NCBI GenBank assembly: GCA_040830765.1
Contig: JBFOMH010000024.1
Location: 13,476-77,475 of the forward strand
Direction of reading: 5' to 3'
DNA length: 64,000 nt
Source of the DNA: Puniceicoccaceae bacterium
GTDB taxonomy: Bacteria > Verrucomicrobiota > Verrucomicrobiia > Opitutales > Oceanipulchritudinaceae
Positions 7,185-34,805 of the stretch are shown one piece after another. Under the pieces are notes generated by a model. It did no database searches. It saw nothing but the letters and a program-made list of their open reading frames with translations, and was not told the origin of the DNA. Positions within the stretch are counted from its first letter, which is position 1. Every line of letters starts with the position of its first letter. Made by a program: the position numbers and the translations under genes.

Positions 7185-10100
7185 CTTTCCAGCCGGGCAA
7201 AGGCGGCATCGATAATCTTCGGGGAGACCTTCTCGCTGGTCCCCAGTTCCTGGGCGAATATCTGCACCTTGTATTCTTCCAGCAGCCAACGCAGCCGGCG
7301 CTTCTCAGCCGGCTCCGACTTGAGACCAGCAAAGCGGCGGATGTAAGCGACCAGCGGACGCGCCTTCTCCGCATCCTTGACAGGATTTTGCCGCGCCCTC
7401 TGGATTCGCCTGGACAAGGCATCAATGTAGCGCGGGTAGTGGTTTAGTCGCGACAAATCAAGGGAGCGAAGGAACCTCGGGTGAACCAGCGCGTCCAGCT
7501 CGGTCTTCCATGGAGAGTCAGGATGGATCAACGTCATGACCTTATCCCGCTCCTTGAGGATTCTTTCCAGCAAATCGACATACTTTGGGACAAGACCCCG
7601 CATATTCTCCCTGGCAGCCATACTCACCTTCTCCAGTGTGGCAGGGTCCAGGGGCAGCGGGTCCTCACAGGCCAGCAGGGAACGCCGAATGAGGGCAAAG
7701 GATTCGGCCGCTAGGGTCTTCGAATCCATCATCGCGGCAAATCCGAGCCCGACCCGTTTCACTTCCTTGGCCAAGTCACGTTGCAACCACCCCAAGTCCT
7801 TGCCGACCGCCTCCTCACACAAGGCCATGAAGCCGGCAAGGGTTGCCCGTCTGGCGGCCGCCTCGGTGGCGAACAGCTTCAGGGAAATACCGTCCTTCCC
7901 TGCTTCCAATCCCGGCCAAGCCTTGACCGGCAGGCCGGCAAGGTTACCCAACACAAGTTCCGTTGGTAGCTTGGGCAGGGTTGAGGGGTGGACGACCTTC
8001 ATCTCGTACTTCCGGCAACCTTCCTGCCAGACCTTCAGCTTGTCGCGACCCTCCCCTTTATCAAAGGAGGCCCGAACCGCTTCCCGATATTGCTGGCTGA
8101 CGTCATCCCAATTGCGGCCCGTGGCAACCGTCCTCTTCTTGCGGTCGATTACTTCGACCCGCGGCTTCAGGTAGTCGGGCACCGCATCCGGGGCCCAGTC
8201 CGTCGGCCAGATACGGATACCGCGGGTTTCCCCGAGCAGGCGCGTCAGTTGGTCGACAAGGCTGCCCTTGTCCGGAGCAACCGCCAGGGCCAACTCCTGC
8301 ACCACATCGGCCATGGGGAACAGTTGCTTGCGGGTATCCTTGGGCAGGCCACGAAGAAGAAACTCGATCCGCTGCTTGATATAACCGGGAACGACCCAGT
8401 CGATCATCGAGGCGTCGACCGACTCAAACTGCTCCACGGGAATCTTCAGGGTCGCGCCATCCTCATCCTCTCCCGGCTTGTAGGCGTAGGACAGGTCCAG
8501 TCGGACCCCACTCATTTCCGTCGCGTCGGGAAAGGCCGCCAGCTCTTCCGCCTCGTCTTCTCCCGGCAACAAGTCTCCCTCGCTGGCGAATAAAAAGTCG
8601 GCCTTTCCGCCATGATGGTCCCGGATAAAGGCCTTCAGGTCGCCGAAGGATCCCACGCGTTCAATCCGCTGCGCGTAAAAACGATAGAGCCGCTCATCAA
8701 GTGCCCAGGTCCCGCTCATGCGCAATCGCGTTTGCCGGTCCCGGACTTCCTCAAGGAGCTTCTGGTTGGCTTCATGGAACGGCAGTCTTGTCCTCAATCG
8801 TCCCTCAACCAGTGCCTCGCGGATGAAGATTTCCGTCGCCTCACGCGGGTTGATTTTCAGGTAGGCTGTCCGCTTGGCAGCAACCTCGAGCCCGTAGAGA
8901 AGGATCCGCTCCCGGGCCATGACGCGCTCACCCTTTTCATCATAAACCGGATCGGTGTATTTATGATTCAGTACATGCTCTCCGACCCGGAGGATCCAAG
9001 CCGGATCGATACGTGCAACTGTCCGGGCATACAAACGCGTAGTCTCCATGAATTCACCCGCGAGGATCCATTTGGCCCCACCCCCTTTGGAGTGCGCTGA
9101 CATGTCAGCGCCTTTTTTCTGCTTTCCACCCTTTCCCCTCGCCAGCTTCTTGAATAGCGTCGATCCCGGAAAGACCATCTCCTTACGGTTGCGGGTGGCC
9201 CGGTAGTGGTTGGTTTCCTCAAGTTGGGCTACGCCCGAGAGAAGTCCGCTCAGAAGGGCACGGTGGATTTGCTCGAACTCGGCCGGTTCCTTGTTCTCCC
9301 GGAACATCCGGATGTCCTTCAAGGTCCGCTCCAGCTGGGCATGGATGTCCCGCCACTCCCGCATCCGGAGATAGCTCAGGAAGTGGGCCTTGCAGAACTT
9401 GCGCAGCTGGTTCTGGCTCAGGCGTTCCATCTCATCGTGGTAACTATTCCAGATGTTCAGGAGGGTCAGGAAATCCGACTCCTCATGCCGGAACTTGCGG
9501 TGCATCTCATCCGCCTCCTTGGCCGCGTCCATTGGCCGCTCGCGAGGGTCCTGGATACTGAGACCCGCGGCAATTACGAGGATTTCATGAACACAGCCCT
9601 CCCGGTTGGCCTCCAGCAGCATGCGGCCCACCGTCGGGTCAACCGGAAGGTGTGACAACTTGCGGCCCAAAGGGGTCAGCCCTTGGATTTTGGCATCCAG
9701 CGCCCCCAGCTGGACCAGGAGTTCATATCCGGAGCGGATAGCCCGCTCCCCCGGGGGCTCGATAAAGGGAAATGTGCGGATGTCCCCAATCTTGAAAGCG
9801 ATCATCCGGAGAATCACGTCGGCGAGATTGCAGCGCAGGATCTCCGGCGTGCTGTATTCGGGACGACCGAGGAAATCCTGTTCACTATAAAGGCGGACAC
9901 AAACTCCTTCACTTAAGCGGCCAGCACGACCTTTGCGTTGGTTGGCCGAGCTCTGGGATACCTTTTCAATCGGCAGCCGCCGGGTATGAGTCGCGGCACT
10001 GTAACGGCTGACCCGGGCCAGACCGCTGTCGATGACAAACCGGATCCCGGGAATGGTAATCGAGGTCTCCGCTATGTTCGTTGAGAGGATGACTTTGCGC

Positions 10101-18090: not shown

Positions 18091-20208
18091 TTAATCAGTG
18101 GGTAATCCCTGCGTCCCGGGTACATCCTTGTGCCGGGTCATCAACTTTTTTGGCCGGATAGGCGGCATGCAGCGACGGTCACTTTCATCCGTTGCCTTCT
18201 GTTGGGCCTTCGGGTTGAGACACAGGAGCCCCGCCAACGCACCCAACCAAAGACAGGCATCGAGCACTTGCACGGATTCGCTGGTCACATCCATTGTCAG
18301 GATGTGCATCAATACCTTGAGCAGGAAGGGAAACACCAGCACGGCCGCAAGGTACTTGCGTTCGGAAAGCCCGATCATCCAACCAACCAGGGCGGCGAAA
18401 AGCAGCACCCGGTAGAACCACTTGTAAACCGGAACGATAGTCTGGTTATAGGTCACCAATTGCTTATTGGAGCGCTTTTCCATCACCTGAACCACGGTTC
18501 CAGTCGCCCGCATGATCTTGACCAGTTCGGTGCGGACTTCTTGTGCCTGACGCTCTGTCCGGAATCTCGTCCAGACGCGATAATCGCTGTTCAAGGGTTC
18601 CTGACCGTAAGTGTTCACGTCAGGCAGGAATAGCCCCCAGCCGGTAAGTCGTCCCCACGCAACCAGTTTCGCCCGCAGGGGGAGTTCGTCCATGGATGCT
18701 TCGGCCAGCCCGGAAAACTCCTTCATGGCCGGACCATCGAATGAATAATCGTTAGAGGCCCGTTCATTGATGATCTTTCCATATGCTGGTGAACCTACAA
18801 GGGCCCGGACTTCAAACATACCGCTGGTAAAAGGTGCTACTGCTGATGGACCCGGCAAGCTGCAGACGGCAGGATTATCCGCTTCCAGGCTACTTAAGTA
18901 AAGAGATCCTCCAAACAGGACGACAAAGGGAATAACGGCTTGGCTGGCGGCTCTCCAAAGCACCGACATACCCCAGAATTCACTACCTCGGACCTTCACG
19001 GTCCACCACACCGTGCCCGATACCAGTCCAATCGGGAGCATGTACAACATCAAGCCGGTGGGGGTAATGGCCGCCGTCCAGAAGGCAAACAGGCTGAAGA
19101 GGATAATCCCAAGCCAGCGCAAGAAACCATCCCTTTGCCAATAGAGCAAAAATGCGGCCATGGAGAGCATCCAGCAACTAGCGGCCACACTCTCCACCCC
19201 TATGTGCCGACTGGCAAAGATTACCGGGGGGGAGACCATGGCAAGGAGGACAATCGGCCCGAGAAAATATCCCTGAATCAGGCGCACCAGCGACAAGCCA
19301 AGAATCAGCAGGGCCAGACAGAAGAAGATTGCCTGGACAATGGTGTGATTGGTCAGGTCCCAACTTGTCCATTCACCCACTTGGGCCAAAAACGTGGGAT
19401 AACCCGGCCGATGGCCTTGGGAAGGCAGATCGGAGCCATCGCTCGATGTCCCGATTGCCTGTAACAGGTACCCCTCGCTTTCTCCCGGGGAAAATGCCGG
19501 CATTGCATGCCGGACCAGATGTAGATGGGCAACCGCTCCAATGATGGCACAAACCAAAAACACGAGGACCTCGTGGAAGGGAGCCTTCTTCCGGTAGGCA
19601 TGGACGCCATCCGGGAAACGGACAAACGTAGCCAGGGAAAAGAAGAGAATGAATCCAACAACGACAAATCCAAATGTGGCCTTGAACCAGATGGCGAGCC
19701 ACTCGAAGGGTGATGTTGTCGGTAGGTAAACGGAAACCGGAACCGCACCTCCGGGTTCAGCCTGGACCCGGTAGCCAGTGCTGATCTTGTTCACCCGGAC
19801 GCCAGTTTCGTCGAGTTCATCCAGCAAGGATAGATCCATCGAATAGGTCTCCGCCCCCTCAGTCAGGCAGGTAACATTGAGATCCTTCAGGACGACATCA
19901 CCGACTGTTCCGTCCGGGAAGACCAGTGCCAATTCATAGGAGGGACGAGGCGGCAACTCTGTCCCCCACTTCCATTGATAGCCCTCAGGATCTCCAAGTG
20001 GCACCAAAGGAAGTGGCTCCTCGTCGACGGCATACGCCAACTGGACGTTCTGGGCGGAGCCTGCACCAAGGGAGAGGACAACTGGATGGTTGGATGCGTG
20101 CCACCAGGGAAGAACAAATGCCATCAATAAAAGGTACAGCACCAGCTCAACTACCGCGAAGCTGATATAAAAGCGGCGCAGGACAACCTTTTGGCGAATC
20201 TCATCCAT
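18091..20208 (-). CDS. Polytopic membrane protein, GT-C-like (705 aa)
   Basis: N-terminal TM, a soluble domain, then many TM segments; HRPGYPTFLA resembles the R(P)PGYPxFL loop of ArnT/PMT-like GT-C proteins. Confidence 0.55.
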   Translation of the reverse strand: MDEIRQKVVLRRFYISFAVVELVLYLLLMAFVLPWWHASNHPVVLSLGAGSAQNVQLAYAVDEEPLPLVPLGDPEGYQWKWGTELPPRPSYELALVFPDGTVGDVVLKDLNVTCLTEGAETYSMDLSLLDELDETGVRVNKISTGYRVQAEPGGAVPVSVYLPTTSPFEWLAIWFKATFGFVVVGFILFFSLATFVRFPDGVHAYRKKAPFHEVLVFLVCAIIGAVAHLHLVRHAMPAFSPGESEGYLLQAIGTSSDGSDLPSQGHRPGYPTFLAQVGEWTSWDLTNHTIVQAIFFCLALLILGLSLVRLIQGYFLGPIVLLAMVSPPVIFASRHIGVESVAASCWMLSMAAFLLYWQRDGFLRWLGIILFSLFAFWTAAITPTGLMLYMLPIGLVSGTVWWTVKVRGSEFWGMSVLWRAASQAVIPFVVLFGGSLYLSSLEADNPAVCSLPGPSAVAPFTSGMFEVRALVGSPAYGKIINERASNDYSFDGPAMKEFSGLAEASMDELPLRAKLVAWGRLTGWGLFLPDVNTYGQEPLNSDYRVWTRFRTERQAQEVRTELVKIMRATGTVVQVMEKRSNKQLVTYNQTIVPVYKWFYRVLLFAALVGWMIGLSERKYLAAVLVFPFLLKVLMHILTMDVTSESVQVLDACLWLGALAGLLCLNPKAQQKATDESDRRCMPPIRPKKLMTRHKDVPGTQGLPTD

Positions 20209-20338
20209 TAAAAACCTTATGCAGGATTATCAGCATCACCTGAACTTGCAATCGTAGAATGGTCTCAGGCCAGCAATAATATGGCTACCAAAAAAAGGTA
20301 AAGTATTTGTAAATAGATACAAGTGAAGTGGAGGCATC

Positions 20339-20860
20339 CTATTGATGGAACCACTTGAACCCCAAGAGGGATCCCCACAAATGGAAAAACTGGGAATACC
20401 AGTAAGCGGACCGTCGGCGCAGAAAATAGGATGAACCGGACTTGGCGACAACGCCCCAAGTGCTGAGTCGCTCTAACCGCACCGAGAGCATATGCTGCTT
20501 GCCATAGGCGGCTTGTAATTCCTTTCGGCTTATGCTGCCTGCTTGTTCGACGAGGAGCATGAAGTAAAAGCGCCTCCCGCTTTCCGAGACACACATCACC
20601 GAGATGTAAAGCAGCAGCAGGCAAACAAGAGTGATGACTGAATAAACCAACCAGAGAGCCTTCTCGGAGGCAGAATCCCCAAGGAGGAAACCCGCTACAA
20701 CCAGTAGAAGGAGAAGGGCAAAGAAAGCCGAACGGGCAATCGTACCCTGCCCCGGAAGGGATTTCCTCTCCGGAAACAGCTTCAACTGCAATCGGTTCAG
20801 GCCTACCGTAAGCGGAAAGTACAGCAGGAGAATCAAAAGCAACTGTATGGTATCGCCCAT
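20339..20860 (-). CDS. Hypothetical membrane protein, 3 TM + C-terminal winged-helix-like region
   Basis: Three hydrophobic helices followed by SISRKELQAAY...RLERLSTWGVV...YFL. Confidence 0.75.
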   Translation of the reverse strand: MGDTIQLLLILLLYFPLTVGLNRLQLKLFPERKSLPGQGTIARSAFFALLLLLVVAGFLLGDSASEKALWLVYSVITLVCLLLLYISVMCVSESGRRFYFMLLVEQAGSISRKELQAAYGKQHMLSVRLERLSTWGVVAKSGSSYFLRRRSAYWYSQFFHLWGSLLGFKWFHQ

Positions 20861-20863
20861 GGC

Positions 20864-21367
20864 TTAACCTTTTGGATCGTCGAAGCCAGCCGACTTCCTC
20901 AAGAAATGAATGAACTTGAGCGTTCGTTTGCCCCGGGACGCGAGTTGGAGATTTCCCTCAGAATCCTCGCTGGCAAACTGTTCACCGACCAGGCTATCCA
21001 GTGAATTCCCGGAAAGGACTTTTTCAGTCAGGACTGATTTTAAGGCTTCCTCCGGGCATCCCTTTCCACCCGCCTGAGCGACGAGCACTGTTATCAGCAT
21101 GGTCGGGGAAGCTGCCTGAGCGGCGGGGTACCAGAAGATATAGGCACTCCCCAGACTAGTGCTGAGGACAAGGGAGAGGAAGCAGGCGTGGAAGGAAAGC
21201 GATCCAAGAAGAAACAGGACCGAGAGAATAACCAGCGGGAAGAGAATCAAGCAGGCCAGGAGGGCCCTGAGGTCATCAATTGGCCTGGAGAGCCGCCACC
21301 AGGCCAAGTGCAATAGCCAGCCAGCAAGGCATGCCGATATTCCTGTAATGAGAATTCCTATACTCAC
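20864..21367 (-). CDS. Hypothetical membrane protein, 3 TM + C-terminal winged-helix-like region (apparent paralogue of the downstream gene)
   Basis: Likely GTG start at 21367, just after the ThDP gene stop; three TM helices, then GCPEEALK...LDSLVGEQF...LQLASRGK. Confidence 0.7.
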   Translation of the reverse strand: MSIGILITGISACLAGWLLHLAWWRLSRPIDDLRALLACLILFPLVILSVLFLLGSLSFHACFLSLVLSTSLGSAYIFWYPAAQAASPTMLITVLVAQAGGKGCPEEALKSVLTEKVLSGNSLDSLVGEQFASEDSEGNLQLASRGKRTLKFIHFLRKSAGFDDPKG

Positions 21368-21371
21368 GGAA

Positions 21372-23081
21372 TCAGGTCCCTTCCATCTCCAGAGGCTTGA
21401 ACTCGGGCTCCATTTCGGTAAGCGGATGTCCAAATGCAATTTTCGGGTAAACGTTGCCCTCAGGATCCAGCATGACTTGCAGCAACACCGGTCCTTCGGG
21501 ATTCTTCCAGAAGAAGTCAAGGGCGGCCGGAACCTGACTTTCCTCCTCAATCGTCATGGCAGGGATGCCATACGCTTCGCTGACCCTGGTAAAGTCGGGC
21601 GCGGTATAACCCCACATCGTCGAATGATACCGGGAATGGAAATAGCTCTGCTGGAATTGGCGGACCATGCCGTGACAACGGTTGTTGATAACCAGCATCT
21701 TGACCGGAAAGTTGTTTCTCCGGACTGTTTCCAGTTCCTGGAGGTTGAGCTGGAATCCCCCGTCTCCTGCAACAAGGACCACCGGCCCGTTTCCATTGTC
21801 GCATACGGCCCCGATTGCCGCCGGAAGTCCATAACCCATGGCACCCATTCCGCCGCTGGTCAGGAAACGTTGCCCCTGTTTGAGCTCGAGACATTGCGCA
21901 CTCCACATCTGGTGCTGCCCGACGTCAGCGACATAGGCCCGGGCGCTGCCCCCCTGACGGGAAAGGTCGGTCAGGAACCGGCAGGGATTGATGCCTTTGC
22001 TGCTGCGGTATTCTGCTTCGGCCGGCCACTCGGACTGCTTTTTTTCAATCTCGGCGAACCAATCGGCGATGTTCAGGGAGACCTTTGGCATAGTGGCCAG
22101 GCTACTGGAGAGAAACGACTGCAAGTCAGCGACGATAGCCTGGCATCCCTCGACCCGGTTATTGACTTCTGATGGATCAACATCGACGTGGAAAATCGAT
22201 TTCCCGGTCTTGAAGGAATCCACATCAGCACCGGTCTGTCGGATATCGAGCCGGCTTCCGAGTACCAGGAGCCAATCCGCCTGCCCGACGGCGTAATTGG
22301 ACCACCGATTGCCATAGGATCCGTAAAAGCCCACCCTTTGGGGATGCCCGTGCTCGAGGACATCATTTCCCAGCAGTGAGAAAACAGCCGGGATTCCGAG
22401 TTTCTCAAGAAAGTCACGCAATGGCCCGCGGATACCGGGTTGGGCACCACCGCTACCGATAATGGCCAGTGGGCGGCTGGCCGACGACAGGCTGCTCCAC
22501 AGATCCTGTGGTATCCCAACCTCTGCCGTCGACGGTCCATCCGGGAGGATTTCCGTTCGTTCAACAGGATCCCGCTGAACATCCATGGGGATATCGATCA
22601 AAACAGGCCCCGGGCGCCCACTCACAGCCAACGAGAAGGCTTTATCCAGCACATCCGGAAGGCTTGCGGCATCCTGTACCAGCCAGCTCCCCTTGGTAAT
22701 AGGCCTGGCCATGGAAACGATGTCCGTCTCCTGGAAACCGAGCTGGCGCACTCCCCTGTTGCCCTTGAGTTCGTGGGTGTTGACCTGGCCCGTGATGAAG
22801 ACCGCCGGCACGGAATCGAAGAAGCAGGAGCCGATTCCCGTGAGAAGATTGGTTGCCCCGGGTCCGCTGGTGGCCATGGCGACTGCGGGCAGGTTGCGCA
22901 TCCGCCCCAACCCGTCAACGGCGAAGGCTGCCGCTTGCTCATGGTGCATGCTGACCACACGAAGCTGGCCCCGGCGATGCACGGAGTCCAGCAGGTGGGT
23001 AATCATGCCACCGACTACCTCGAAGACAACACCCACCCCCTTTGCATGGAGATAGTCAGCTATGTAATCGGATGCCTTCAT
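21372..23081 (-). CDS. ThDP-dependent acetolactate-synthase-like enzyme, YerE-like by context
   Basis: HHEQAAAF, TSGPGATN, TGQV and the ThDP motif GDGGFQLN...NN; embedded in a CDP-sugar operon with no regulatory subunit nearby. Confidence 0.85.
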   Translation of the reverse strand: MKASDYIADYLHAKGVGVVFEVVGGMITHLLDSVHRRGQLRVVSMHHEQAAAFAVDGLGRMRNLPAVAMATSGPGATNLLTGIGSCFFDSVPAVFITGQVNTHELKGNRGVRQLGFQETDIVSMARPITKGSWLVQDAASLPDVLDKAFSLAVSGRPGPVLIDIPMDVQRDPVERTEILPDGPSTAEVGIPQDLWSSLSSASRPLAIIGSGGAQPGIRGPLRDFLEKLGIPAVFSLLGNDVLEHGHPQRVGFYGSYGNRWSNYAVGQADWLLVLGSRLDIRQTGADVDSFKTGKSIFHVDVDPSEVNNRVEGCQAIVADLQSFLSSSLATMPKVSLNIADWFAEIEKKQSEWPAEAEYRSSKGINPCRFLTDLSRQGGSARAYVADVGQHQMWSAQCLELKQGQRFLTSGGMGAMGYGLPAAIGAVCDNGNGPVVLVAGDGGFQLNLQELETVRRNNFPVKMLVINNRCHGMVRQFQQSYFHSRYHSTMWGYTAPDFTRVSEAYGIPAMTIEEESQVPAALDFFWKNPEGPVLLQVMLDPEGNVYPKIAFGHPLTEMEPEFKPLEMEGT

Positions 23082-23985
23082 GTTTTTCGGTATGGAGAAA
23101 GACAAAGTTGGTCTCAATCGTGGATTCAGTTACCGCATCGACAGGCCGGGCTCCTTCCTTGCCCAAACCGTGGCACTGGTAACCGCGGTCCTTGAAGAAA
23201 GCGATGATGTCATTGGGATGATAATCGAACTTCGCGCTCCATTTCCTCAGCATTTCCGAGAATACCACCGGCTGGTCCTGCTCGATAATGGACGCCGCTC
23301 CCCTGAAGGCGAACAGCTCTGCTCCTTCAACATCACACTTGATAAAATCAACCGGTCCACCGAGGTCCTCCCGCATATCGTCAAGGCGGACCAACTGGCA
23401 GACGACTTCCTCGATCTCCTCGTCTTCGAGAATGTTCTGTTGGCTGGCGGCAACCGACATGTGGCGATGGACAAAGAACCTGGCTTCACCCGGAACGTCA
23501 GAAAGTCCATGCCGATGTAATGAGACATCATTACAATTGTTGATGATGGCATTTCTCTCGAACTGGTCCGCGGTCGCGGGTATGGGCTCAAAGGCGTGTA
23601 TCCGCAAGTTAGGATGCAACTTCTTCAGTCCGATCGAGTAAAAGCCGACATTACCACCTATATCCACGAGAACCGGACTCCCTCCCGGAAGGGAGTGAAC
23701 AAGCTTTTCGACGATCGCAAATTCGTATTGCTCGTAGGAACCGAAATTAACCGCCTCCACGGGGGCTGCCCGCATCTCACCTCTTGGGGCAACTAACTCA
23801 ATGGGTGGCCAGGCAAAACGCACCCTCACCTCTCCTTGTCCTATCTGGATCGACTCGACATCCGAACCATCAATCAAGTCAGCATAGTGAAAGAGCTGCT
23901 GGTGCTGCTCAAACATGCGTTCGATGTAGGCCTGCTTGCCAATCTGGCCGGTTTCGAGGGCCTTTTTAAGTTCGGACGGGTTCAT
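23056..23985 (-). CDS. FkbM-family SAM-dependent methyltransferase
   Basis: DIGGNVGFYS, AFEP and FIKCDVEGAE motifs. Confidence 0.9.
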   Translation of the reverse strand: MNPSELKKALETGQIGKQAYIERMFEQHQQLFHYADLIDGSDVESIQIGQGEVRVRFAWPPIELVAPRGEMRAAPVEAVNFGSYEQYEFAIVEKLVHSLPGGSPVLVDIGGNVGFYSIGLKKLHPNLRIHAFEPIPATADQFERNAIINNCNDVSLHRHGLSDVPGEARFFVHRHMSVAASQQNILEDEEIEEVVCQLVRLDDMREDLGGPVDFIKCDVEGAELFAFRGAASIIEQDQPVVFSEMLRKWSAKFDYHPNDIIAFFKDRGYQCHGLGKEGARPVDAVTESTIETNFVFLHTEKHEGIRLHS

Positions 23986-25040
23986 TGCTGATGAAATTCA
24001 ATGGTTCGGGAAAACCCATCCTGTGGATTGACCCGCGGTTGCCAACCAAGATTGCGCAATTTCTGGATCTGTGGGAAGACTTCCGCTGAGAGGCTTTGCG
24101 TCACCGCTTCAGGATGCATCTGCCGCTTCAGTCCGGCCTCTGGGACTAATCCGATGACGAGGTCCGCCAATTCGGCAACGGACAGCACGGCTTCGGGATT
24201 CCCCACATTGTATACCTCACCGGGCACACCCTTGGTTAGCAGTAACAGCAGGGCACCCAGTGTGTCGCTGATATAGCAGAATGCCCGTCGCCCGGTCCCG
24301 TCGCTCTTCAGGACAATGTCCTCGCCGCGGACCGCATTGCCGACGAAATCGGCAAACACCCGCCCGTCACCGAGGAGGTCCATTCCGGGGCCGTAGGTGT
24401 GGAAAATCCGCGCCATATTTACGGGAAGTCCCCGTTCGCTGAAGGCCTTCCGGCACAAGTCCTCTCCTTTCCGCTTGGCCAAGGGATAGAGGGAACGACT
24501 GGAATTGGAATCAACCTGCCCCAGATCATCCTCAGCCGGCCATGCATTGCCGCAGGTATTTCCATAAACCTCGCTGCTGCTGAAAAATAGGAATCTCCTC
24601 AATGTACCTGGCATGGATTGCTCCAGCAGGACTCCGGTCGCATTGACATTGCACAACTCAACCCCCGCGGGATCTGCTTTGCAGGCAGCGGATGTAGCCG
24701 GGCTGGCGGCATGAATGATAAAGTCGGCCCGGGGGACATCCCAGCTCTCAGGCGAAGCCCAATCGGGGGTAAGGAGGTGGACATCCTTGGAATCGCCCCG
24801 AAGCCATGGAAATGTGCGAACTGCCTTCTCCGTGGATCGAACCCAGAGGTGCAAGGTCAACCCGAGTGAATCAACCTCGTTCAACCACATCAGAAATTTC
24901 GCCCAATATGCCGGAATCAGACCCGTCGCTCCGGTAATCAACCAGGTTGTCTGACCCAGACTGGCCAAATCCAAGCCTGCCCGAAGAGTCCGGAAATCCT
25001 CGACAAGGACGGGATGCAACTGCTCGGAAACCACTCCCAT
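23982..25040 (-). CDS. NAD-dependent epimerase/dehydratase/reductase (extended SDR)
   Basis: TGATGLI, HAASPA, SSSEVYG, YxxxK (YPLAK) and RIFHTYGPG. Confidence 0.9.
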   Translation of the reverse strand: MGVVSEQLHPVLVEDFRTLRAGLDLASLGQTTWLITGATGLIPAYWAKFLMWLNEVDSLGLTLHLWVRSTEKAVRTFPWLRGDSKDVHLLTPDWASPESWDVPRADFIIHAASPATSAACKADPAGVELCNVNATGVLLEQSMPGTLRRFLFFSSSEVYGNTCGNAWPAEDDLGQVDSNSSRSLYPLAKRKGEDLCRKAFSERGLPVNMARIFHTYGPGMDLLGDGRVFADFVGNAVRGEDIVLKSDGTGRRAFCYISDTLGALLLLLTKGVPGEVYNVGNPEAVLSVAELADLVIGLVPEAGLKRQMHPEAVTQSLSAEVFPQIQKLRNLGWQPRVNPQDGFSRTIEFHQQ

Positions 25041-25052
25041 TTGATGCTCAGG

Positions 25053-26021
25053 TTATTCCCCGCCGCCTTCCTTGAATCCGACTTTTTCAGCAACGATATA
25101 TAGCAGGCGGCCTTTTCCCTGATTATAAACCCGGGCCAGATACTCCCCGATAAGACCCAGGAAGAATGACTGCGTCCCGATGCCGAACAAAATCAAGAGG
25201 ACAACCGTCGAAATGCCCGGCGGAGGCAAGGTGGCGAAGCCGGGCTTGAAAAGGTAGATCAGCAGGTAGGCAACGGCCAGACCCAAAGAAACAAGGGTTG
25301 TCAGCACGCCAAAATACGTCGCCACCTGGAGTGGTTTGGCGGAAAAGCAAATAATCGCATTAAGGGCATACTTGATGCAAAAAACAAGACCGGCACTGGA
25401 GCGACCACCTTCCCTTGGGGCCCGATCATAGGGAACGAGTTCACGACGGAATCCAACCCAGTTGACAAGACCTCTCAAATAGCGGTCAGGCTCACGCAGC
25501 TGGCGCAAGACAAGGACAACCTTTCGGTCGAGCAAGCGAAATTCAGTCGCTCCTGGTGTTATGCGCGATTCACTCAGGTGATAGATAAGTTTGTACGAAA
25601 TTACCGCGCCAAGGCTTTTCAGCCAGCTGTCGTCGTGACGCTCACGGACTACCCCGTTGACCACCTCCGCTCCCGCTTCCCAGAGACGGACAAATTCGGG
25701 TATGACTTCCGGCGGATCCTGGAGGTCGGAAAGAAGCGTAATCACCGCATCTCCTTCGGCATGGTCCAGCCCGGCCGTTATCGATGGATCAAAACCGAAA
25801 TTGCGTGAATAGCGGAGATATTTCCAGCGGTTGTCCTTGGTGCAGATTTCCAGTGCCCGCTCGCGGGTCGCATCTTCACTCCGGTTGTCGAGGATCAGGA
25901 CCTCATAGTCGTAGCCGGCCAATTCCTCATCGAACAACCGGGAAACTCTCTCATAGAGGCGCGGGAGATTCTTCTCCTCGTTGAACGCCGGGCAGATAAT
26001 GGACAGTTTCTTCCTCGACAT
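25053..26021 (-). CDS. GT2 polyprenyl-phosphate glycosyltransferase (GtrB/ArnC/DPM-like)
   Basis: PAFNEE, SRNFG, SDLQDPP, FRLLDR, two C-terminal TMs and GEYLAR. GGAGG ribosome-binding site before ATG 26021. Confidence 0.9.
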   Translation of the reverse strand: MSRKKLSIICPAFNEEKNLPRLYERVSRLFDEELAGYDYEVLILDNRSEDATRERALEICTKDNRWKYLRYSRNFGFDPSITAGLDHAEGDAVITLLSDLQDPPEVIPEFVRLWEAGAEVVNGVVRERHDDSWLKSLGAVISYKLIYHLSESRITPGATEFRLLDRKVVLVLRQLREPDRYLRGLVNWVGFRRELVPYDRAPREGGRSSAGLVFCIKYALNAIICFSAKPLQVATYFGVLTTLVSLGLAVAYLLIYLFKPGFATLPPPGISTVVLLILFGIGTQSFFLGLIGEYLARVYNQGKGRLLYIVAEKVGFKEGGGE

Positions 26022-26029
26022 AAAGCCTC

Positions 26030-26812
26030 CTACCAGACTTTCCAGGGCGCCTTGCCGCCCCTCCACAGGTCATTCAACAATTGTGACTCCCGGTAGGTAT
26101 CCATGGATTGCCACCAGCCCTGGTGCCGGTAGGCGTTCATTTGCCCGTCTGCAGCCAGTTTCGATAACGGTTCCTTCTCGAAGACCGGATTATCGTACCC
26201 TTCAAGGTAGTTAAAAATTGATGACTGGCAGACCATGAATCCCCCGTTGACATAACTCTGGTTCAATTGCGGTTTTTCGGCAAACTCACTGACTCCACCA
26301 TCCGCTTCAATCTCAAGGGTTCCAAAGCGACTCGCTGGATGAACCGCAGCAATCGTGCATATCCGCCCGGAGCTGCGGTGTTCCTCTATACTGGCCCCGA
26401 TATCGATATCGGACAACCCGTCCCCATAAGTCAGCAGAAAATCCTCACCCTCGTCGATATAGGACTGGATCCGCCGGATTCGTTCACCGGTCATGCTTTC
26501 CTGGCCCGTCTCGGCCAGGGTCACGGTCCAGTCCTCCTCGGCGTGCGAAGTGTGGTAGCGGACATTCGGATTCCGGCCCAGGGTCAGAGTCACATCACAG
26601 GTGTTCCACAAGTAGTTCTTGAAAAAGTCCTTGATCATATCACCACGGTAACCGAGACAGAGGACAAAATCCTTGTGGCCGAAGTGCGCGTAATACTTCA
26701 TGATGTGCCAGAGCATCGGGCGGCCCCCGATCATGACCATTGGCTTGGGGCGGTACTCCGTCTCTTCCCTGAGCCGGGTTCCCTTGCCTCCGCATAATAT
26801 GACGACTTTCAT
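26030..26812 (-). CDS. rfbF: Glucose-1-phosphate cytidylyltransferase
   Basis: GGKGTRLREET..PKPMV.IG, TYGDG, NGGF and WQSMDT..APWKVW. Confidence 0.95.
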   Translation of the reverse strand: MKVVILCGGKGTRLREETEYRPKPMVMIGGRPMLWHIMKYYAHFGHKDFVLCLGYRGDMIKDFFKNYLWNTCDVTLTLGRNPNVRYHTSHAEEDWTVTLAETGQESMTGERIRRIQSYIDEGEDFLLTYGDGLSDIDIGASIEEHRSSGRICTIAAVHPASRFGTLEIEADGGVSEFAEKPQLNQSYVNGGFMVCQSSIFNYLEGYDNPVFEKEPLSKLAADGQMNAYRHQGWWQSMDTYRESQLLNDLWRGGKAPWKVW

Positions 26813-26833
26813 ACTCCTGGTGTTTCTGGAATT

Positions 26834-28483
26834 CTAGAGATAGGGCTTACAAAATACATGTATCTGTTCGATTATGTAGTCGAGCATCTTCCTGCTCAGA
26901 CCCGGGTAAACACCGATAAAGATGGCTTTGTTCATAATTTTATCCGATCCGGACAAATTGCCGATTACCCGAAAGGCATCCGAATTCTCCCGCGCCAACT
27001 GGACCAGAGCCGGTTGGCGGACCAGGTTACCCCCGAAGAGGGTCCGGTTGCCGATTTTTACCTCATCGAGGAATTTCGAGAAAGTCGGCCGCGAGAATCC
27101 GGCGGAGTCGCGGACCAGCATCAGGAAGCCGAACCAGCTGGGGACGGCCCGGCGTTGTTCGCTGTCGGCATAAACAAACTCACCCCCTTGCCAGTCCTCG
27201 GCATGTACCGGAAGCGCAAATTCAAAGCAGCTCTGGAGATCGTCCAAACCAGCCCGTAGATAATTCCAATTATCCTGCCGGGCCTTGATAAAGGATGGCA
27301 TGCGTTGCAACTGGACGTTCCCGATAGCCGCCTGGATATCGAGAGGCTTCAAGTTGTATCCCAAGTGGCTATAGATGTACTTGTGGTCATAGCCTACCGG
27401 CAAATCGCCCAGTTGCCACCCAAAACGCTTATTACAGGTGTTGTCCTTCCCACTGGGACACCAGCAGTCACGGCCCCAGTCGCGGAAACTCTCCACAAGC
27501 AACTTCAGCTTCATGTCGCGGACGATGTTAACCGCGCCCCCCTCTCCCATCGTCAAGTGATGGGGCGGATAAAAGGACTGGGTCGAGATATCTCCAAAAC
27601 TGCCGGTTAGGGCGGTCCTCAATCCATTCTCATCCGGGTATGCATAAAGGCTTCCGAGTGAATCACAATTGTCCTCAATCAACCACAAATCGTACTTGCG
27701 GCAAAATGCCATCACCGAAGCGAGGTCAAAGGGATTGCCCATGGCATGGGCGAACATCACCGCCTTGGTCTTTCCTTCACGATAGGCTGCCTCCAGATCC
27801 TCCATGCGAGGATTCAGGGTAACAGGATCGTTATCGAGGAAGACCGGTACGAGATTGTTCTGGATAAGCGGGGCAACTGTTGTCGGAAAACCCGAAGCAC
27901 AGGTTATCACCTCATCGCCGGGACAAAGGCGCTTTTCCCGGGGAAGTTTGTGACTGGTCAATGCACTGACGGCGAGCAGGTTCGCCGATGAGCCCGAATT
28001 GACCAGGATGCTCTTGCGGACTCCAAGAAACTTGGCCAGCCCTTTCTCCAAAGCATCGCCCTCCTTGCCAAGCGTGAGCCAGAAGTCGAGAGTGACATCG
28101 ACCGCCCGAACGATTTCTTCCTCATTGTAAACCCTCCCCGCATAAGGGACAGGATTCTCTTTCGGAACGAAGGCATCGTCATTACCAATCCAATGGGTTT
28201 CGCTACCATGGGCAATGCTCGCGTAGCGACGGCTCCACGACAGGACCAGATCCTTGATGATACCGGCAAAGGCTGCCTCTGGCAAGGAGCCTTCCACTAC
28301 CTCGATATCTTCAGCGGACAGGGACAGCAATTCCCGACTGGAAGGTAACGATGCATGCGGTTGCAAAGGTATGGCCAGCCAGGCCTTGTCCTCCTTCTCC
28401 ACCAGCAAGTGGCGGGGAGAAGCCTCGCCGCCGGCCCTTGTCCGAACAATTTGACCAGAATGCAATGTAGATCCATCAACCAT
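26834..28483 (-). CDS. rfbH: CDP-4-keto-6-deoxyglucose 3-dehydratase E1 (RfbH/DdhC) with an N-terminal extension
   Basis: NSGSSANL, EDNCD, SFYPPHHLTMGEGG (His where aminotransferases have Lys), RDWGRDCWC..GKDNTC Fe-S motif and YDHKY.YSH.GYNLK. Confidence 0.92.
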   Translation of the reverse strand: MVDGSTLHSGQIVRTRAGGEASPRHLLVEKEDKAWLAIPLQPHASLPSSRELLSLSAEDIEVVEGSLPEAAFAGIIKDLVLSWSRRYASIAHGSETHWIGNDDAFVPKENPVPYAGRVYNEEEIVRAVDVTLDFWLTLGKEGDALEKGLAKFLGVRKSILVNSGSSANLLAVSALTSHKLPREKRLCPGDEVITCASGFPTTVAPLIQNNLVPVFLDNDPVTLNPRMEDLEAAYREGKTKAVMFAHAMGNPFDLASVMAFCRKYDLWLIEDNCDSLGSLYAYPDENGLRTALTGSFGDISTQSFYPPHHLTMGEGGAVNIVRDMKLKLLVESFRDWGRDCWCPSGKDNTCNKRFGWQLGDLPVGYDHKYIYSHLGYNLKPLDIQAAIGNVQLQRMPSFIKARQDNWNYLRAGLDDLQSCFEFALPVHAEDWQGGEFVYADSEQRRAVPSWFGFLMLVRDSAGFSRPTFSKFLDEVKIGNRTLFGGNLVRQPALVQLARENSDAFRVIGNLSGSDKIMNKAIFIGVYPGLSRKMLDYIIEQIHVFCKPYL

Positions 28484-29579
28484 CTGAACTACAGAATCTC
28501 CTGATATTGTCCCTCGTCAAGGCCACGACCGCATCCGATTTATCAATCGGTATGGCTGAAGCGTTCCTGTACCAGCCAATCGTCTCTTCAATTGTCTTGC
28601 CAAAGTCCCAGCGCGGCCGCCAGTCCAGGTGTTCGCGGGCCTTGTTAACTGACAAAGAAAGCAACTTTGCCTCCGCCGGCCCTCCTTCGGCAAGGTTCTC
28701 CCACGTACCCGGCCAGGATTTGAGGACAGCCTCCACCAGTTCCTCGACCGACCGGTGGCCCTCCTCATCCGGACCAAAGTTAAAGGCGTAAAGATCGTCC
28801 GGATCCGTCCAGCCATCCGCCAGACGGGAACCCAACCATAAGTAGCCGGAAAGTGGCTCCAGCACATGCTGGAACGGGCGGGTGTGGCCAGGATTCCGCA
28901 CTTGTATTGGCGTCCCGGCCTCCAGGCCCCTGATGCAGTCGGGGACAATCCGGTCAGCGGCATAGTCCCCTCCGCCGATGACATTGCCTGCCCTCGCTGA
29001 AGCAATACTCACCGGTGAACCGTCAAAGAAGGACTTCCTGTAGGAGTGGACAACAATTTCCATCGCTCCCTTGCTGGCGCTGTAGGGATCCTCTCCGCCA
29101 AGCGGATCCATCTCAGTGAAGGCCATGCCGGAATTGTCATTCCGGTAGCACTTGTCTGATGTAACCATTAATCCAATACAGGAATGGTCTATTCTTCTTA
29201 GGGCCTCCAGCAAATTGACAGTGCCCATGATGTTGGTCTCGAAGGTCAGTCGTGGATCCCGGTAAGACTCGACCACCAGCGGCTGGGCGGCCAGGTGGAA
29301 GACAAAGTCCGGCTTGAAATCAGACACCGCCAGGGAAAGAGTGTTTGTATCGCGAACATCCGCGATGGCGTGGCGCATCCGGCCTGCCAGTCCCAGTCGT
29401 TCGAAAAGACTGGGTTCCGTAACCGGTTCCAGCGCATATCCGGCAACCTCTGCCCCGCACTCCAGGAGCCATTCACTGAGCCAGGACCCCTTGAATCCGG
29501 TATGGCCGGTGATCAGGACTCGTTTGCCGGAGTAGGTTTTCCGGAATACCTCAAGAAGATCTGTTGCTTCATAGCTCAT
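28476..29579 (-). CDS. rfbG: CDP-glucose 4,6-dehydratase
   Basis: TGHTGFKGSWL, HLAAQPLV, TSDKCY, DPYSASK, RAGNVIGGGD and RPFQHVLEPLSGY. Confidence 0.95.
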   Translation of the reverse strand: MSYEATDLLEVFRKTYSGKRVLITGHTGFKGSWLSEWLLECGAEVAGYALEPVTEPSLFERLGLAGRMRHAIADVRDTNTLSLAVSDFKPDFVFHLAAQPLVVESYRDPRLTFETNIMGTVNLLEALRRIDHSCIGLMVTSDKCYRNDNSGMAFTEMDPLGGEDPYSASKGAMEIVVHSYRKSFFDGSPVSIASARAGNVIGGGDYAADRIVPDCIRGLEAGTPIQVRNPGHTRPFQHVLEPLSGYLWLGSRLADGWTDPDDLYAFNFGPDEEGHRSVEELVEAVLKSWPGTWENLAEGGPAEAKLLSLSVNKAREHLDWRPRWDFGKTIEETIGWYRNASAIPIDKSDAVVALTRDNIRRFCSSDG

Positions 29580-31966
29580 GTCAGATCTCCTGTATTCTTC
29601 GTCTTCCGGCTACCCTTGATGCGGTAGATTTCATATAGCAAGACGACAGGCAAGGCTGCTATCAGAACCAGCAGGACGGAGGCTATTGGTGCCGCACAAT
29701 CCATGTAGCGGTTCACACCTGGTACCACCGCGGCTTCAACAAGACCGTAGAAAACGGCCCTGCCGAGAAGGAAGAAGAGAAGAATCAGCAAGGCGGCCCC
29801 GGCCTTCCAGGGATCCACGCTCGCATCACGGGAACGGAAAGCCCGGTAAAGCAATGTTGCCAGACAGATGAGCATGGTACCCCCGACGAGAAACGGATAA
29901 TAACTCCCGGCAATTTGCGCCCTCAGGTGGCGCCTCGGGGTCGGTTTATCCTCAACCAGACGGGGCAGCTGGCGCTGGCCGATCCCGATAGTCATTGGGA
30001 TCCCCGAGGAGGTGGACTCAACCGTTCCCCAGTGCCCTTCAGGAAGGTCATGTAGGGGAAACTCATGAACCAAGAGCTTGTTACTCCAAAACTGGACGGT
30101 GATTGGCGCGAGGTCCAGGACCGGGGTCTCGACATGGAAGCCAAGTGGTTCAAGCGGTTCGCTACCCGTGACATCGAGGTACATGGGTGCGATGTCATCG
30201 CGCTGCAGGCGGAAGGCCTCCAACTTGAGGAACTGGTCCTTGTCGTTGACCATGGAAACATGGGTCAGTGGACCAGTGGCAGTGAAAGCCCATCCACGCA
30301 ACATGGCCTTCATTGAGTTGCTGTTGTCAGGGAAAGGAGACCGGTAGGAAAGGATGGTCAGGTCCGTTGCTGCCTGATCTTCGCTTGCTTCGGTTTTTAT
30401 CCGATGGGGAAACTGGCGCTCCGATAAATTATAGGTGCTCAGGCGCTGGCCGTCCTTCCACAAGGTGAGCTTGAAGGGACCTCTGGAAAGCGGGATGAAC
30501 TTCAACCGGAAAGCCGTATCGAATATCCCTTCCTGTCCAGTGAGGCGCTCGATATCTCCCTTCTTCCAGTACACCAGGCCACTTGGTGAGGTGGAGGCGA
30601 CAATGGTTCCATCGCTATCCTCGACAGCGATGAAGTCGAGCCGACCCTCTGAGGAAAATGCGTGCCCCCTGACCTCAACGCTGTTGTCGGCAAGGATGGA
30701 TGCTCGCCTATTGGTGGCATGGTCGAAGAGCGGCCTGTACATTGAAGGGACATCCGCCTCCTTGAGGGCAAATTCAGGTTCCACCTTCTGGTAGTGGAGG
30801 CGTTTAAGGGTGTCGAGAAATAGCCTTGGAAATTCCGGGATCCAGATGCCAAAGTTCGGATCCAGGGGAAAGGAAGTACTTAGTCCCCGCTTGGGCAAAC
30901 GCCCGTCCTTAAAGGCAGTCTCCAGCTCGGCAGAAGTAAGCCTCATCCATTCATCCGCTTCCTTGGGAGAGGTATAAATCCCCGAGGAAGCCAATGAATC
31001 ATACAGACGCCACCACATCCACGCACCCAATTCCCCCTCCCGGCCGGTAGTCATCTCCCCATATTCCAGGTGCGGATTGTTCTGGTCGAGCAAGCCGTCA
31101 CGCAACTGGGCAAAGCGGGGACTCGCTTCCATCGCCATCTCAAGTGTGCGCGTGGTTACTGGCGCCCAAATGGACGGATCGGGGGTATCAATCTGATAAA
31201 GGGTATCCAGCAGACCGGAAAAGCCGGGAGCCTGCTGTTCGTTGGTGGCAAAAATCCCCCACTTGGCATAATTCAAGGAACTGACAAGAAGGATAATGGA
31301 GAGGTAGGCACCAACCGGTACAAGAACCAGAGCCATTTGCGGGAGACTCTCCTTCCAGGTCTTTCCTTGTTTGAAGCGCAGGAAAAGCAAGCGGAGAAGG
31401 AAGAGCAGGCCCAGCAAGCCGATGACCCAAGGCTGTTCCCGGCGGGTCAGCATCATCCAGGCAATGAGGAAACCAAGTGCCCACAGCCATCCGCTGGTCC
31501 AGCGCCAAAAGTGGAGGGAAAGCAAGCGAAAGGCGATCCCCAGGAAAATCAGCATGAGACAAAAGTAGAAGGGTTCTGTCAGCAACTGGTTAAAACCCGT
31601 CAGGACCCAGGGATGGAATGCCAGGCCAAGCAAACTGATCACCGGTATTGCCGGCAGACTAACCAGGCGCATCAGCCCGGTGCAGAAGAAATAACTGCAA
31701 CCAAGAAAAAAGAACTCGATACACAACCGGTAGGGTATGCCCGTCTCCATGCAGATGGCTCCAAACACCGGAAAACCCAGCGGGCGGATAAAAAGCCAAT
31801 TCAAGTTGGGATCACAGGCATAATAATGGTCCAGGATCGAAAGGGCGTACCCCATGTCATCAAAGCGCTGGGCGAATATCTCCTGGTCCGCGACAAGAAA
31901 CAATTTCACCAGGGCAACCAGGACAAATATCCCGTTGAAAATCCTCATACCGATGTTCCTTTGCAT
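29576..31966 (-). CDS. GT-C-like polytopic membrane glycosyltransferase with a large periplasmic region (796 aa)
   Basis: First-loop DD (RFDDMGY), RPLGFP, LTEPFY, TRREQ, many TMs and C-terminal NRY; overlaps the rfbG start. Confidence 0.65.
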   Translation of the reverse strand: MQRNIGMRIFNGIFVLVALVKLFLVADQEIFAQRFDDMGYALSILDHYYACDPNLNWLFIRPLGFPVFGAICMETGIPYRLCIEFFFLGCSYFFCTGLMRLVSLPAIPVISLLGLAFHPWVLTGFNQLLTEPFYFCLMLIFLGIAFRLLSLHFWRWTSGWLWALGFLIAWMMLTRREQPWVIGLLGLLFLLRLLFLRFKQGKTWKESLPQMALVLVPVGAYLSIILLVSSLNYAKWGIFATNEQQAPGFSGLLDTLYQIDTPDPSIWAPVTTRTLEMAMEASPRFAQLRDGLLDQNNPHLEYGEMTTGREGELGAWMWWRLYDSLASSGIYTSPKEADEWMRLTSAELETAFKDGRLPKRGLSTSFPLDPNFGIWIPEFPRLFLDTLKRLHYQKVEPEFALKEADVPSMYRPLFDHATNRRASILADNSVEVRGHAFSSEGRLDFIAVEDSDGTIVASTSPSGLVYWKKGDIERLTGQEGIFDTAFRLKFIPLSRGPFKLTLWKDGQRLSTYNLSERQFPHRIKTEASEDQAATDLTILSYRSPFPDNSNSMKAMLRGWAFTATGPLTHVSMVNDKDQFLKLEAFRLQRDDIAPMYLDVTGSEPLEPLGFHVETPVLDLAPITVQFWSNKLLVHEFPLHDLPEGHWGTVESTSSGIPMTIGIGQRQLPRLVEDKPTPRRHLRAQIAGSYYPFLVGGTMLICLATLLYRAFRSRDASVDPWKAGAALLILLFFLLGRAVFYGLVEAAVVPGVNRYMDCAAPIASVLLVLIAALPVVLLYEIYRIKGSRKTKNTGDLT

Positions 31967-34698: not shown

Positions 34699-34749
34699 TT
34701 TCCCTCTCCGCCAAATGGCGGTACCGGAACGCCTTCTCTTCCCCGATTC

Positions 34750-34765: not shown

Positions 34766-34805
34766 CACAACGTGCAGCAGTGATTTTGTGGGGTGTTTTT
34801 TAGCG

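Follow-up and report, generated by a model that had tools for sequence, protein, structure and literature searches.

SmA and SmB, a tandem pair of paralogous three-helix membrane proteins with winged-helix-type domains, as a candidate adaptor in lipid-linked sugar machinery

The stretch of DNA analysed here, called the window throughout, comprises 64,000 nucleotides (nt) from a Puniceicoccaceae bacterium (assembly GCA_040830765.1, contig JBFOMH010000024.1, positions 13,476 to 77,475 of the forward strand) and carries two adjacent genes for small membrane proteins, which we call SmA and SmB. Both proteins consist of three membrane helices followed by a winged-helix-type domain, they are modelled as a heterodimer, and their relatives recur as a tandem pair, mostly in gene clusters for glycans or unusual sugar nucleotides. 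Tentatively, and at slightly less than even chances, we favour the view that SmA and SmB act as a heterodimer on the cytoplasmic side of the machinery for lipid-linked sugars, in the role of a non-catalytic adaptor or activator. The SmA/SmB family is a pair component without a described counterpart, having neither a name nor a solved structure.

Architecture, paralogy and conserved residues of SmA and SmB

SmA (20864..21367, minus strand, 167 amino acids (aa)) starts with a GTG codon 4 nt past the stop of the gene for a thiamine diphosphate (ThDP)-dependent enzyme, and the ATG of SmB (20339..20860, minus strand, 173 aa) lies 3 bp past the SmA stop. Verification of these coordinates left intact what a preliminary description of this DNA had reported, namely two adjacent open reading frames (ORFs) of about 170 aa, separated by 3 bp. 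Because the lengths and the coverage of homologues fit the short start of SmA (22 matches, of 156-169 aa apart from a single one of 128 aa, 15 of them over 100% of the length, with homologues of 165-169 aa giving full coverage), the GTG start giving 167 aa is favoured over a TTG start that would give an ORF of 228 aa.

AlphaFold2 models of both proteins, built on family alignments, reached a mean predicted local distance difference test (pLDDT) score of 89.1 for SmB and 84.7 for SmA. The order of elements is identical in the two models, in which three long helices are followed by three short ones, then by a beta hairpin and finally by a terminal helix, which bears out the shared architecture of three transmembrane helices and a C-terminal winged-helix-type domain that had been proposed at the outset. 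The membrane helices of SmA lie at about aa 3-26, 32-53 and 59-85 and are followed by the winged-helix domain at aa 88-143 and a basic terminal helix at aa 144-159, a region that corresponds to 20888..21106 on the minus strand (aa 88-160). For SmB, the membrane helices lie at about aa 2-28, 37-59 and 64-90, and three further helices, a beta hairpin and a terminal helix follow at aa 95-165; this net basic C-terminal domain (20363..20578, minus strand, aa 95-166) aligns to the winged helix of SmA. With a size of about 80 aa in each model, the cytoplasmic domain joins the membrane helix without a linker in both proteins, and in SmB a single unbroken helix (H64-107) includes both the third membrane segment and the start of the C-terminal domain.

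In a VIA-align fold search, which is independent of Foldseek, SmA 84-163 matched winged-helix proteins in all of the top 50 rows (Z 8.0-9.2). Leading matches were MarR, HucR, RosR, PadR and MotA (Z 9.1-9.2; root-mean-square deviation (rmsd) 2.1-2.7 Å over 70-81 residues), the best one being MarR 3bj6_B with Z 9.2 and an rmsd of 2.4 Å over 75 residues; compact alignments of SmA to winged-helix proteins in general displayed an rmsd of 2.1-3.5 Å over 63-81 residues. Foldseek, run with the whole models of SmA and SmB, gave zero rows at E<=0.001. Fold searches with the whole SmB model were filled with generic helical-bundle matches and do not address its C-terminal domain, which is assigned to the winged-helix type because it shows the same order of secondary structure elements, because the profile alignment to the SmA family covers the full length, and because weak Foldseek rows lead to CggR, YodB, HxlR-type proteins and RovA. 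At the sequence level, no winged-helix profile of Pfam matched SmA or SmB above its cut-off. Twenty distant members of the family gave sub-threshold winged-helix matches only (EutK_C, E 0.0053; HVO_A0261_N, 0.008; MarR_2, 0.012), and the best MarR_2 match, present in one of the 20 members scanned, reached 16.2 bits compared to a cut-off of 27. The first loops are positively charged in both proteins (W-W-R-L-S-R-P in SmA and K-L-F-P-E-R-K in SmB), and the positive-inside rule suggests a topology with the N-terminus outside and the C-terminus inside for each of them.

Homology of the two proteins, an essential element of the preliminary description, is not visible in a BLASTP comparison (E 0.87), and hhalign with the first small alignments yielded a probability of 8%. 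It found its support in deep profiles of 70 SmA-family and 35 SmB sequences, for which hhalign gave a probability of 97.85% (E 6.6e-13, 156 columns) in an alignment spanning the first helix through the last. This alignment pairs Y-P-A-A-Q-A-A-S-P-T of SmA with I-S-V-M-C-V-S-E-S-G-R-R of SmB, as well as R-x-x-L-G-L with W-G-R-L-L-G-F, and distant SmA-family members reach up to 22 bits against the SmB profile over their full length. Judged by these profiles, SmA and SmB are old, distant paralogues whose junction motifs have diverged.

Modelled as a complex, SmA and SmB obtained a score of 0.70 (0.70, 0.68 and 0.70 in the individual runs) versus 0.00 for the best of three controls; the mark applied to this score is reached by 116 of 157 solved complexes and by 2 of 215 mismatched pairs, counts that apply only approximately here, own alignments having been used. 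The runs share at least 92% of their contacts, and the pLDDT of the partner is at least 80. In both proteins, the 250 modelled contacts involve membrane helix 3, the junction motif and the terminal helix as well as, from the winged-helix domain, helix 3 and the wing, the tightest contacts being formed by membrane helix 3 of SmA (64-79) with that of SmB (73-87). The complex model thus supports both the heterodimer that had been postulated and its interface, and this interface explains a charge pattern that holds family-wide. Net charges of helix 2, helix 3 and wing are -0.9, -1.0 and -0.2 in the SmA family (n=70), as opposed to +0.2, +1.5 and +2.3 in SmB (n=35), with a mean net charge of +7.8 for the C-terminal domain of SmB. 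Since the acidic SmA domain packs on the basic SmB domain in the model, the winged helices would therefore be a dimerisation module and not DNA readers.

The junction motifs W-Y-P-A-A-Q-A-A-S-P-T-M of SmA (21098..21133, minus strand, aa 79-90) and C-V-S-E-S-G-R-R-F-Y of SmB (20564..20593, minus strand, aa 90-99) are both situated at the cytoplasmic end of membrane helix 3 and both in the modelled dimer interface. Within the SmA junction, WYPAAQAASPTM is invariant in the 22 sequences of alignment A2; the wider family follows the consensus Y-P-A-A-Q-A-x-S-P-S/T, with a conservation of 0.99 for Y80, 0.99 for P88 and 0.79 for Q84 in the 70-sequence alignment A4. The SmB string C-V-S-E-S-G-R-R is invariant or nearly so in 35 sequences, C90, E93, S94, R96 and R97 being fully invariant. 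AASPT and SESGRR, singled out early as the junction strings, hence turned out to be part of the most conserved portion of their respective families. Columns with polar residues that are at least 70% conserved comprise H20, W24, R25, P29, Y76, Y80, Q84, S87 and P88 in the SmA family and R23, P36, Q38, G39, C90, S92, E93, S94, R96 and R97 in SmB. All of them are found in loop 1, where helix 2 begins, or where helices 1 and 3 reach the cytoplasm, and the SmA- and SmB-family alignments contain zero conserved polar residues in the periplasmic loop or the outer helix halves. Taken together with the dimer model, these positions suggest that the interface contains a single composite polar site, situated level with the head groups of the inner leaflet.

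Distribution of the family and its genomic surroundings

Among 1.84 billion representatives, the SmA profile recovered 1,232 clusters with a threshold of E<=0.001, and 694 when this was tightened to E<=1e-10. Neither SmA nor SmB belongs to a family in Pfam or NCBIfam at the thresholds used, and a protein atlas returned only unnamed clusters for the SmA family, Pseudomonadota and Verrucomicrobiota being the commonest taxa. Profile searches against PDB sequences gave six rows for alignment A4 (E 0.45-0.97), none of them significant, and none for A3; the literature searched, covering titles and the openings of abstracts, described no membrane protein pair with three helices and a winged helix. 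The nearest homologues were found in Puniceicoccaceae and other Verrucomicrobiota, where the family is sparse, with nine of 401 sampled genomes carrying it, the window's own included.

Of 14 genome loci, six found via the SmB motif and eight in the Verrucomicrobiota sample, 13 carry two family members side by side; the locus L026 has a single member. In 15 of the 19 metagenome loci found via the SmA motif an SmB-type gene is directly next, and in three the contig ends first, leaving 15 of 16 loci where the contig provides room. Wherever the genes stand in tandem, the order is invariably SmA then SmB, so that the expected tandem homologues exist as a conserved pair. The one remaining metagenome locus has a lone SmA-type gene at L055:6812-7585 on the plus strand, its C-terminus diverging after the wing and lacking the terminal helix, with no glycan genes nearby; it is probably a decayed copy or a frameshifted read.

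In the window, the pair lies inside a tightly packed minus-strand cassette of 11 genes (18091-31966) flanked by housekeeping genes. The first gene encodes a polytopic membrane protein of 796 aa (29576..31966) and is followed by those for a cytidine diphosphate (CDP)-glucose 4,6-dehydratase (28476-29579), an RfbH-type 3-dehydrase (26834-28483), a glucose-1-phosphate cytidylyltransferase (26030-26812), a GT2 glycosyltransferase (25053..26066), an epimerase/reductase (23982-25040), an FkbM methyltransferase (23056-23985) and a 581-aa ThDP-dependent enzyme of the acetolactate-synthase type (21372..23117), which stands directly upstream of SmA; after SmB and a further 130 nt, a polytopic membrane protein of 705 aa (18091..20208) completes the cassette, all of these genes being on the minus strand. 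A promoter and terminator scan of the cassette remained below shuffled sequence (5 versus 7.4 and 14 versus 16.1), and the 130-nt gap after SmB was empty.

Since the ThDP enzyme scores under every acetolactate-synthase cut-off, it is probably a sugar-branching enzyme of the YerE kind, branching by ThDP enzymes being dealt with in PMC9306805. Together with the cytidylyltransferase, the dehydratase, the 3-dehydrase, the epimerase/reductase and the FkbM methyltransferase (21372-29579), it makes up the genes that one would look for in the synthesis of a yersiniose-like branched 3,6-dideoxyhexose. The cassette contains no E3-type reductase that could serve RfbH. The RfbH protein itself revealed about 100 extra N-terminal residues, its profile match beginning at residue 101 of 549. 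The GT2 (337 aa, four genes from the pair) carries C-terminal hydrophobic segments and matches PF00535 with E 5e-25; in NCBIfam it resembles the polyprenyl-phosphate sugar synthases PgfS and ArnC, its best matches, with 217 bits for the former and 132 bits for the latter, each short of the required score (500 and 529, respectively). Neither the 705-aa nor the 796-aa protein has a Pfam match even at E<=1. The 796-aa protein provides a weak WsfD-like lead in NCBIfam (E 0.0018), and the 705-aa protein, whose neighbours in a protein-language-model atlas carry PMT_2 or PMT in 11 of 30 hits, is possibly GT-C-like. Of the claim that the cluster contains a GT2 and GT-Cs, the GT2 was thus confirmed by PF00535, while the GT-C label of the two large proteins was not and stands at the level of leads. 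The surrounding system is probably of a known kind, in which a GT2 and large membrane transferases add a rare sugar outside the cytoplasm.

No GtrA, Wzx, MATE, SMR or ABC gene was recognised in the cassette, and the window has zero matches to PF04138, in line with the earlier statement that the cluster has no recognisable GtrA; the only match of the genome is found on another contig (G000:C6:21312-21692, minus strand, locus L008). Its open frame of 268 aa is about twice the usual length of the family, which has 117 profile positions. Further along the window, at 34671-36362 on the plus strand, an ORF of 563 aa shows two stretches of similarity to adenylosuccinate synthetase, the better of which covers residues 286-519; its N-terminal half may be unmatched or its start codon over-extended.

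Genes of the related loci are greedy ORF picks, so that neighbours were possibly overlooked or are spurious, and many metagenome contigs are short. Among close relatives, the CDP-sugar, ThDP and GT2 genes are kept in five of six loci as far as the contigs reach; at L007 only the 796-aa protein, with its orthologue directly after the pair, and a phosphoglycosyl transferase are kept. The ThDP enzyme is also directly upstream in L002-L004, L006 and L052, the last continuing after the pair with a 750-aa YfhO-like protein; in L005 two genes lie between.

L005 belongs to a Bryobacteraceae metagenome-assembled genome, which we take to be of the Acidobacteriota, another phylum. Its segment 2556-12699 encodes RfbF, RfbG, RfbH, the ThDP enzyme, a reductase, a GT2, SmA, SmB and a protein of 730 aa, for which 13 membrane segments are predicted and which matches PMT_2 weakly. 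Identities to the window proteins are 31-56%, with 55% for the ThDP enzyme and 40% for SmB. In a sample of 401 genomes from this phylum, only the seed genome was found at E<=1e-8, with at most nine candidates scored per genome. The presence of the cassette in L005 fits horizontal spread, and could be due to horizontal transfer or a binning error.

Eight more distant Verrucomicrobiota loci displayed a GT2 within 8 kb in five cases, often a short one (249-254 aa), and Wzm/Wzt in one; in seven, a polytopic protein of 380 aa or longer is encoded no more than 6 kb away. GtrA-family genes occur in two of them, adjoining the pair at L024:9056-9550 (minus strand) and located 7 kb away at L026:17029-17421 (minus strand), in the same cluster as the single family member. 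Starting from the 705-aa and 796-aa proteins, jackhmmer retrieved nothing but close orthologues from the large ORFs of the other loci. Several families are thus represented by the large membrane neighbours, at least two further ones without a Pfam name having about 665-756 aa (L021-L024) and about 506-540 aa (L021, L024, L027). Of the 14 metagenome loci scanned, eight have sugar-nucleotide or glycan genes beside the pair; in three of the others there are only radical S-adenosylmethionine (radical-SAM) genes, and the last three lack both kinds. SIS and HldE-like heptose genes were seen in L056, L057, L059 and L060, and radical-SAM genes directly adjoin the pair in L051, L054, L061 and L062. In L062, an SmB-type protein is fused to an ABC-2 (Wzm-type) permease in one 427-aa frame (7517-8800, plus strand), followed by genes for an ABC ATPase, a GT4, a GT2 and Wzz/GNVR; this is a single case, and a sequencing error removing a stop codon is a possible cause.

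Most of the loci are accordingly clusters for glycans or unusual sugar nucleotides, as had been anticipated for the relatives. The preliminary description had named three findings that would speak against it, namely non-homologous proteins, a C-terminus other than a winged helix, and homologues occurring singly and away from glycan clusters; what emerged instead were homologous proteins with winged-helix-type C-termini that stand in tandem in glycan clusters.

Possible roles of the pair

The favoured adaptor reading builds on the observed architecture, paralogy, tandem order, glycan-cluster context and positions of conserved residues. SmA and SmB would be paralogous inner-membrane proteins forming an obligate heterodimer, each crossing the membrane three times with its N-terminus outside and its C-terminus in the cytoplasm, and each third membrane helix would lead straight into a winged-helix domain at the membrane surface. 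The two third helices would pack together, the acidic winged helix of SmA would rest on the basic one of SmB, and the terminal helices would close the dimer. Invariant residues of both proteins (H20, W24, R25, Y76, Y80, Q84, S87 and P88 of SmA; R23, Q38, C90, S92, E93, S94, R96 and R97 of SmB) would converge at the interface, at the level of the inner-leaflet head groups. For the ligand, the partners and the effect, we infer that this composite site binds a phosphate-bearing head group, either polyprenyl phosphate or its sugar adduct, and that the dimer links the ThDP enzyme and the GT2, which would make and load the unusual CDP-derived sugar, with those large membrane proteins or exporters by which the lipid-linked product is used. 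Its mode of action may be analogous to GacJ or Rv3632 aiding a GT2 and to DPM2 and DPM3 aiding DPM1. According to 10.1101/180810, GacJ, a protein of 113 aa with three membrane helices, is encoded beside the GT2 GacI and binds it, whereby the Km of GacI for undecaprenyl phosphate falls from 18.7 to 1.1 µM. The fusion in L062 would put the module physically on a machine that handles lipid-linked glycans.

Several points weigh against an adaptor. A GT2 is no universal neighbour, being present in five of the eight distant genome loci and in two of the 14 metagenome loci, many of the latter short, and the large membrane neighbours come from several unrelated families, so that no single partner stands out. 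The window GT2 needs no membrane anchor, because it has C-terminal hydrophobic segments of its own. SmA and SmB are not related to DUF2304/GacJ, so the analogy is purely functional, and invariance at the level of C-V-S-E-S-G-R-R would fit a catalytic site as well. The heterodimer is a model rather than a measurement, and a cassette without a recognisable flippase keeps alive the reading of the pair as that flippase.

Under this last reading, the heterodimer itself would flip the polyprenyl-phosphate-linked sugar made by the GT2, as a six-helix counterpart of ArnE/ArnF or GtrA. The cassette indeed has a polyprenyl-phosphate-type GT2, two large membrane proteins and no recognised flippase gene, which leaves the pair, built as tandem small paralogues like ArnE/ArnF, as the sole unexplained membrane component; one relative, that of L062, is fused to an exporter permease, and the invariant polar site at the inner leaflet could serve as the entry for a head group. 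Moreover, flippase assignments in three-component systems are described in PMC11127046 as generally unproven and resting on context, not on assays. We nevertheless regard a flippase as unlikely, because GtrA-family genes co-occur with the family, adjoining the pair in L024 and lying in the same cluster in L026 (two of the eight distant loci) as well as elsewhere in the window's genome and in four of five genomes with close relatives, and because polar conservation is limited to the cytoplasmic face, the outer helix halves and the periplasmic loop being devoid of conserved polar residues. This argues against the proposal that the pair stands in for GtrA, and the anticorrelation with gtrA that should have accompanied it is rejected, GtrA being present in the same genomes and loci. 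Furthermore, the cytoplasmic domain makes up most of the conserved mass of each protein; Pgf cassettes, with a GT2 and two YfhO-type enzymes, likewise have no dedicated flippase (10.1101/2024.05.05.592596), and according to a proposal in PMC12992685, a GT2-type synthase may flip what it makes by means of its membrane domain. Of the original idea of a scaffold or flippase, the scaffold half is thus compatible with the findings and the flippase half is unsupported. Somewhat wider, and still doubtful, is the notion of a new class of machine, a six-helix dimer clamped by winged helices that would capture the phosphate-sugar head group of a polyprenyl-phosphate sugar at the inner leaflet and either flip it or hand it on to a neighbouring GT-C-like protein or an ABC-2 exporter.

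The varied neighbourhood would also suit a membrane docking platform, or metabolon, for soluble nucleotide-sugar tailoring enzymes such as the ThDP enzyme or a transketolase, radical-SAM enzymes and epimerases, which would not act on the lipid carrier at all. Tailoring enzymes for sugar nucleotides are the commonest immediate neighbours, as seen from the ThDP enzyme directly upstream in the window and five further loci, the radical-SAM genes adjoining the pair in four and the SIS and HldE-like heptose genes in another four, and the GT2 is not universal. These enzymes, however, vary by locus and the invariant motifs of the pair do not, which speaks for a small ligand or a membrane partner shared by all loci, and the fusion partner in L062 is a membrane permease, not a soluble enzyme, so that we consider such a platform improbable. 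Less probable still is that the pair is an enzyme, small and membrane-bound, whose substrate is the lipid-linked sugar or the carrier lipid; invariant residues of both partners (Cys, Ser, Glu and Arg in SmB; His, Arg and Tyr in SmA) would then make up a shared active site. The junction motifs are strictly invariant in sequences that are 27-77% identical overall, and those of SmA and SmB meet at the modelled interface; on the other hand, neither sequence nor fold searches revealed similarity to any enzyme family, no cofactor motif is present, and the SmA motif differs from that of SmB, allowing for one shared site at most. The least credible of the alternatives is a membrane-tethered transcription regulator of the cassette, as the preliminary description had also suggested. 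The MarR/PadR-like fold of the C-terminal domain and the strongly basic SmB domain with its mean of +7.8 would be in keeping with it, and membrane-bound transcription factors are widespread according to PMC10269533. The surfaces that would read DNA, though, are basic in SmB but net acidic in the SmA family (-1.0 for helix 3, -0.2 for the wing), and the model hides them in the interface, where helix 3 and the wing of one protein face those of the other. Winged-helix matches in Pfam are below cut-off and limited to some members, there is no linker between membrane helix and domain, and conservation peaks at the membrane interface instead of the putative recognition helix. A small share of the probability is kept for an explanation that we have not thought of.

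Multi-component systems that decorate glycans outside the cytoplasm are widespread and shape antigens, phage receptors and envelope integrity, and the membrane steps between the GT2 and the final transferase are their least understood part. An unnamed family of at least 1,232 clusters, with a strict two-gene build, a confident model and an invariant site, is a testable candidate for an additional component of such systems. If the pair were indeed a new machine, it would supply a step for which many three-component glycosylation systems have no biochemically demonstrated protein. SmA and SmB would also represent an unusual use of the winged helix, as a charge-complementary dimerisation clamp on the membrane. 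Since the pair marks clusters for rare branched or C-methylated sugars, it is useful in genome mining.

Comparison with known systems

Membership in DUF2304, the family of GacJ and Rv3632, was rejected. PF10066 gave no match in SmA and SmB and none in 20 distant members at E<=1, and hhalign against a 20-sequence DUF2304 alignment resulted in probabilities of 0.3% (A4) and 0.2% (A3). Two genomes (G107 and G128) contain both the SmA/SmB family and DUF2304, in separate places. What the two have in common is a small protein with three membrane helices near a polyprenyl-phosphate GT2, which in the case of GacJ serves a multi-component system for extracytoplasmic glycosylation; GacJ, however, is a single protein of 113 aa without a winged helix, whereas SmA and SmB are paralogous to each other, measure about 170 aa each and include a cytoplasmic domain.

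DPM2 and DPM3, the small membrane subunits of eukaryotic dolichol-phosphate-mannose synthase, stabilise a GT2-type polyprenol-phosphate sugar synthase and keep it in place on the cytoplasmic side of the membrane; they have two membrane helices and no winged helix. They are likened to SmA and SmB by description only, with regard to the short neighbouring GT2 (249-254 aa) of several distant loci, and differ in that the window GT2 carries its own hydrophobic C-terminus.

ArnE and ArnF are tandem small paralogous membrane proteins in a system with a GT2 and a GT-C, and are thought to constitute a heterodimeric flippase for undecaprenyl-phosphate-aminoarabinose. SmA and SmB are likewise tandem paralogous subunits modelled as a heterodimer. 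Each of the Arn proteins has four membrane helices of the SMR/EamA-type superfamily and no soluble domain; SmA and SmB, in contrast, have three helices and a winged helix, with no SMR/EamA-type match in a scan against all of Pfam.

GtrA, the small protein of three-component glycosylation systems, measures about 120 aa and has four membrane helices and no soluble domain, and is the component that is seemingly missing from the window cassette. SmA and SmB differ from it by their three helices and their cytoplasmic domain of about 80 aa. Membership in this family was also rejected, as PF04138 matched neither protein at E<=0.01; the same profile does find the GtrA gene of the genome.

Compared to MarR and PadR, finally, the winged helix of SmA and SmB is fused to three membrane helices and shows no family-level sequence match, but the fold of SmA 84-163 is similar, and in the dimer model the helices before and after the winged helix join in dimerisation as they do in MarR.

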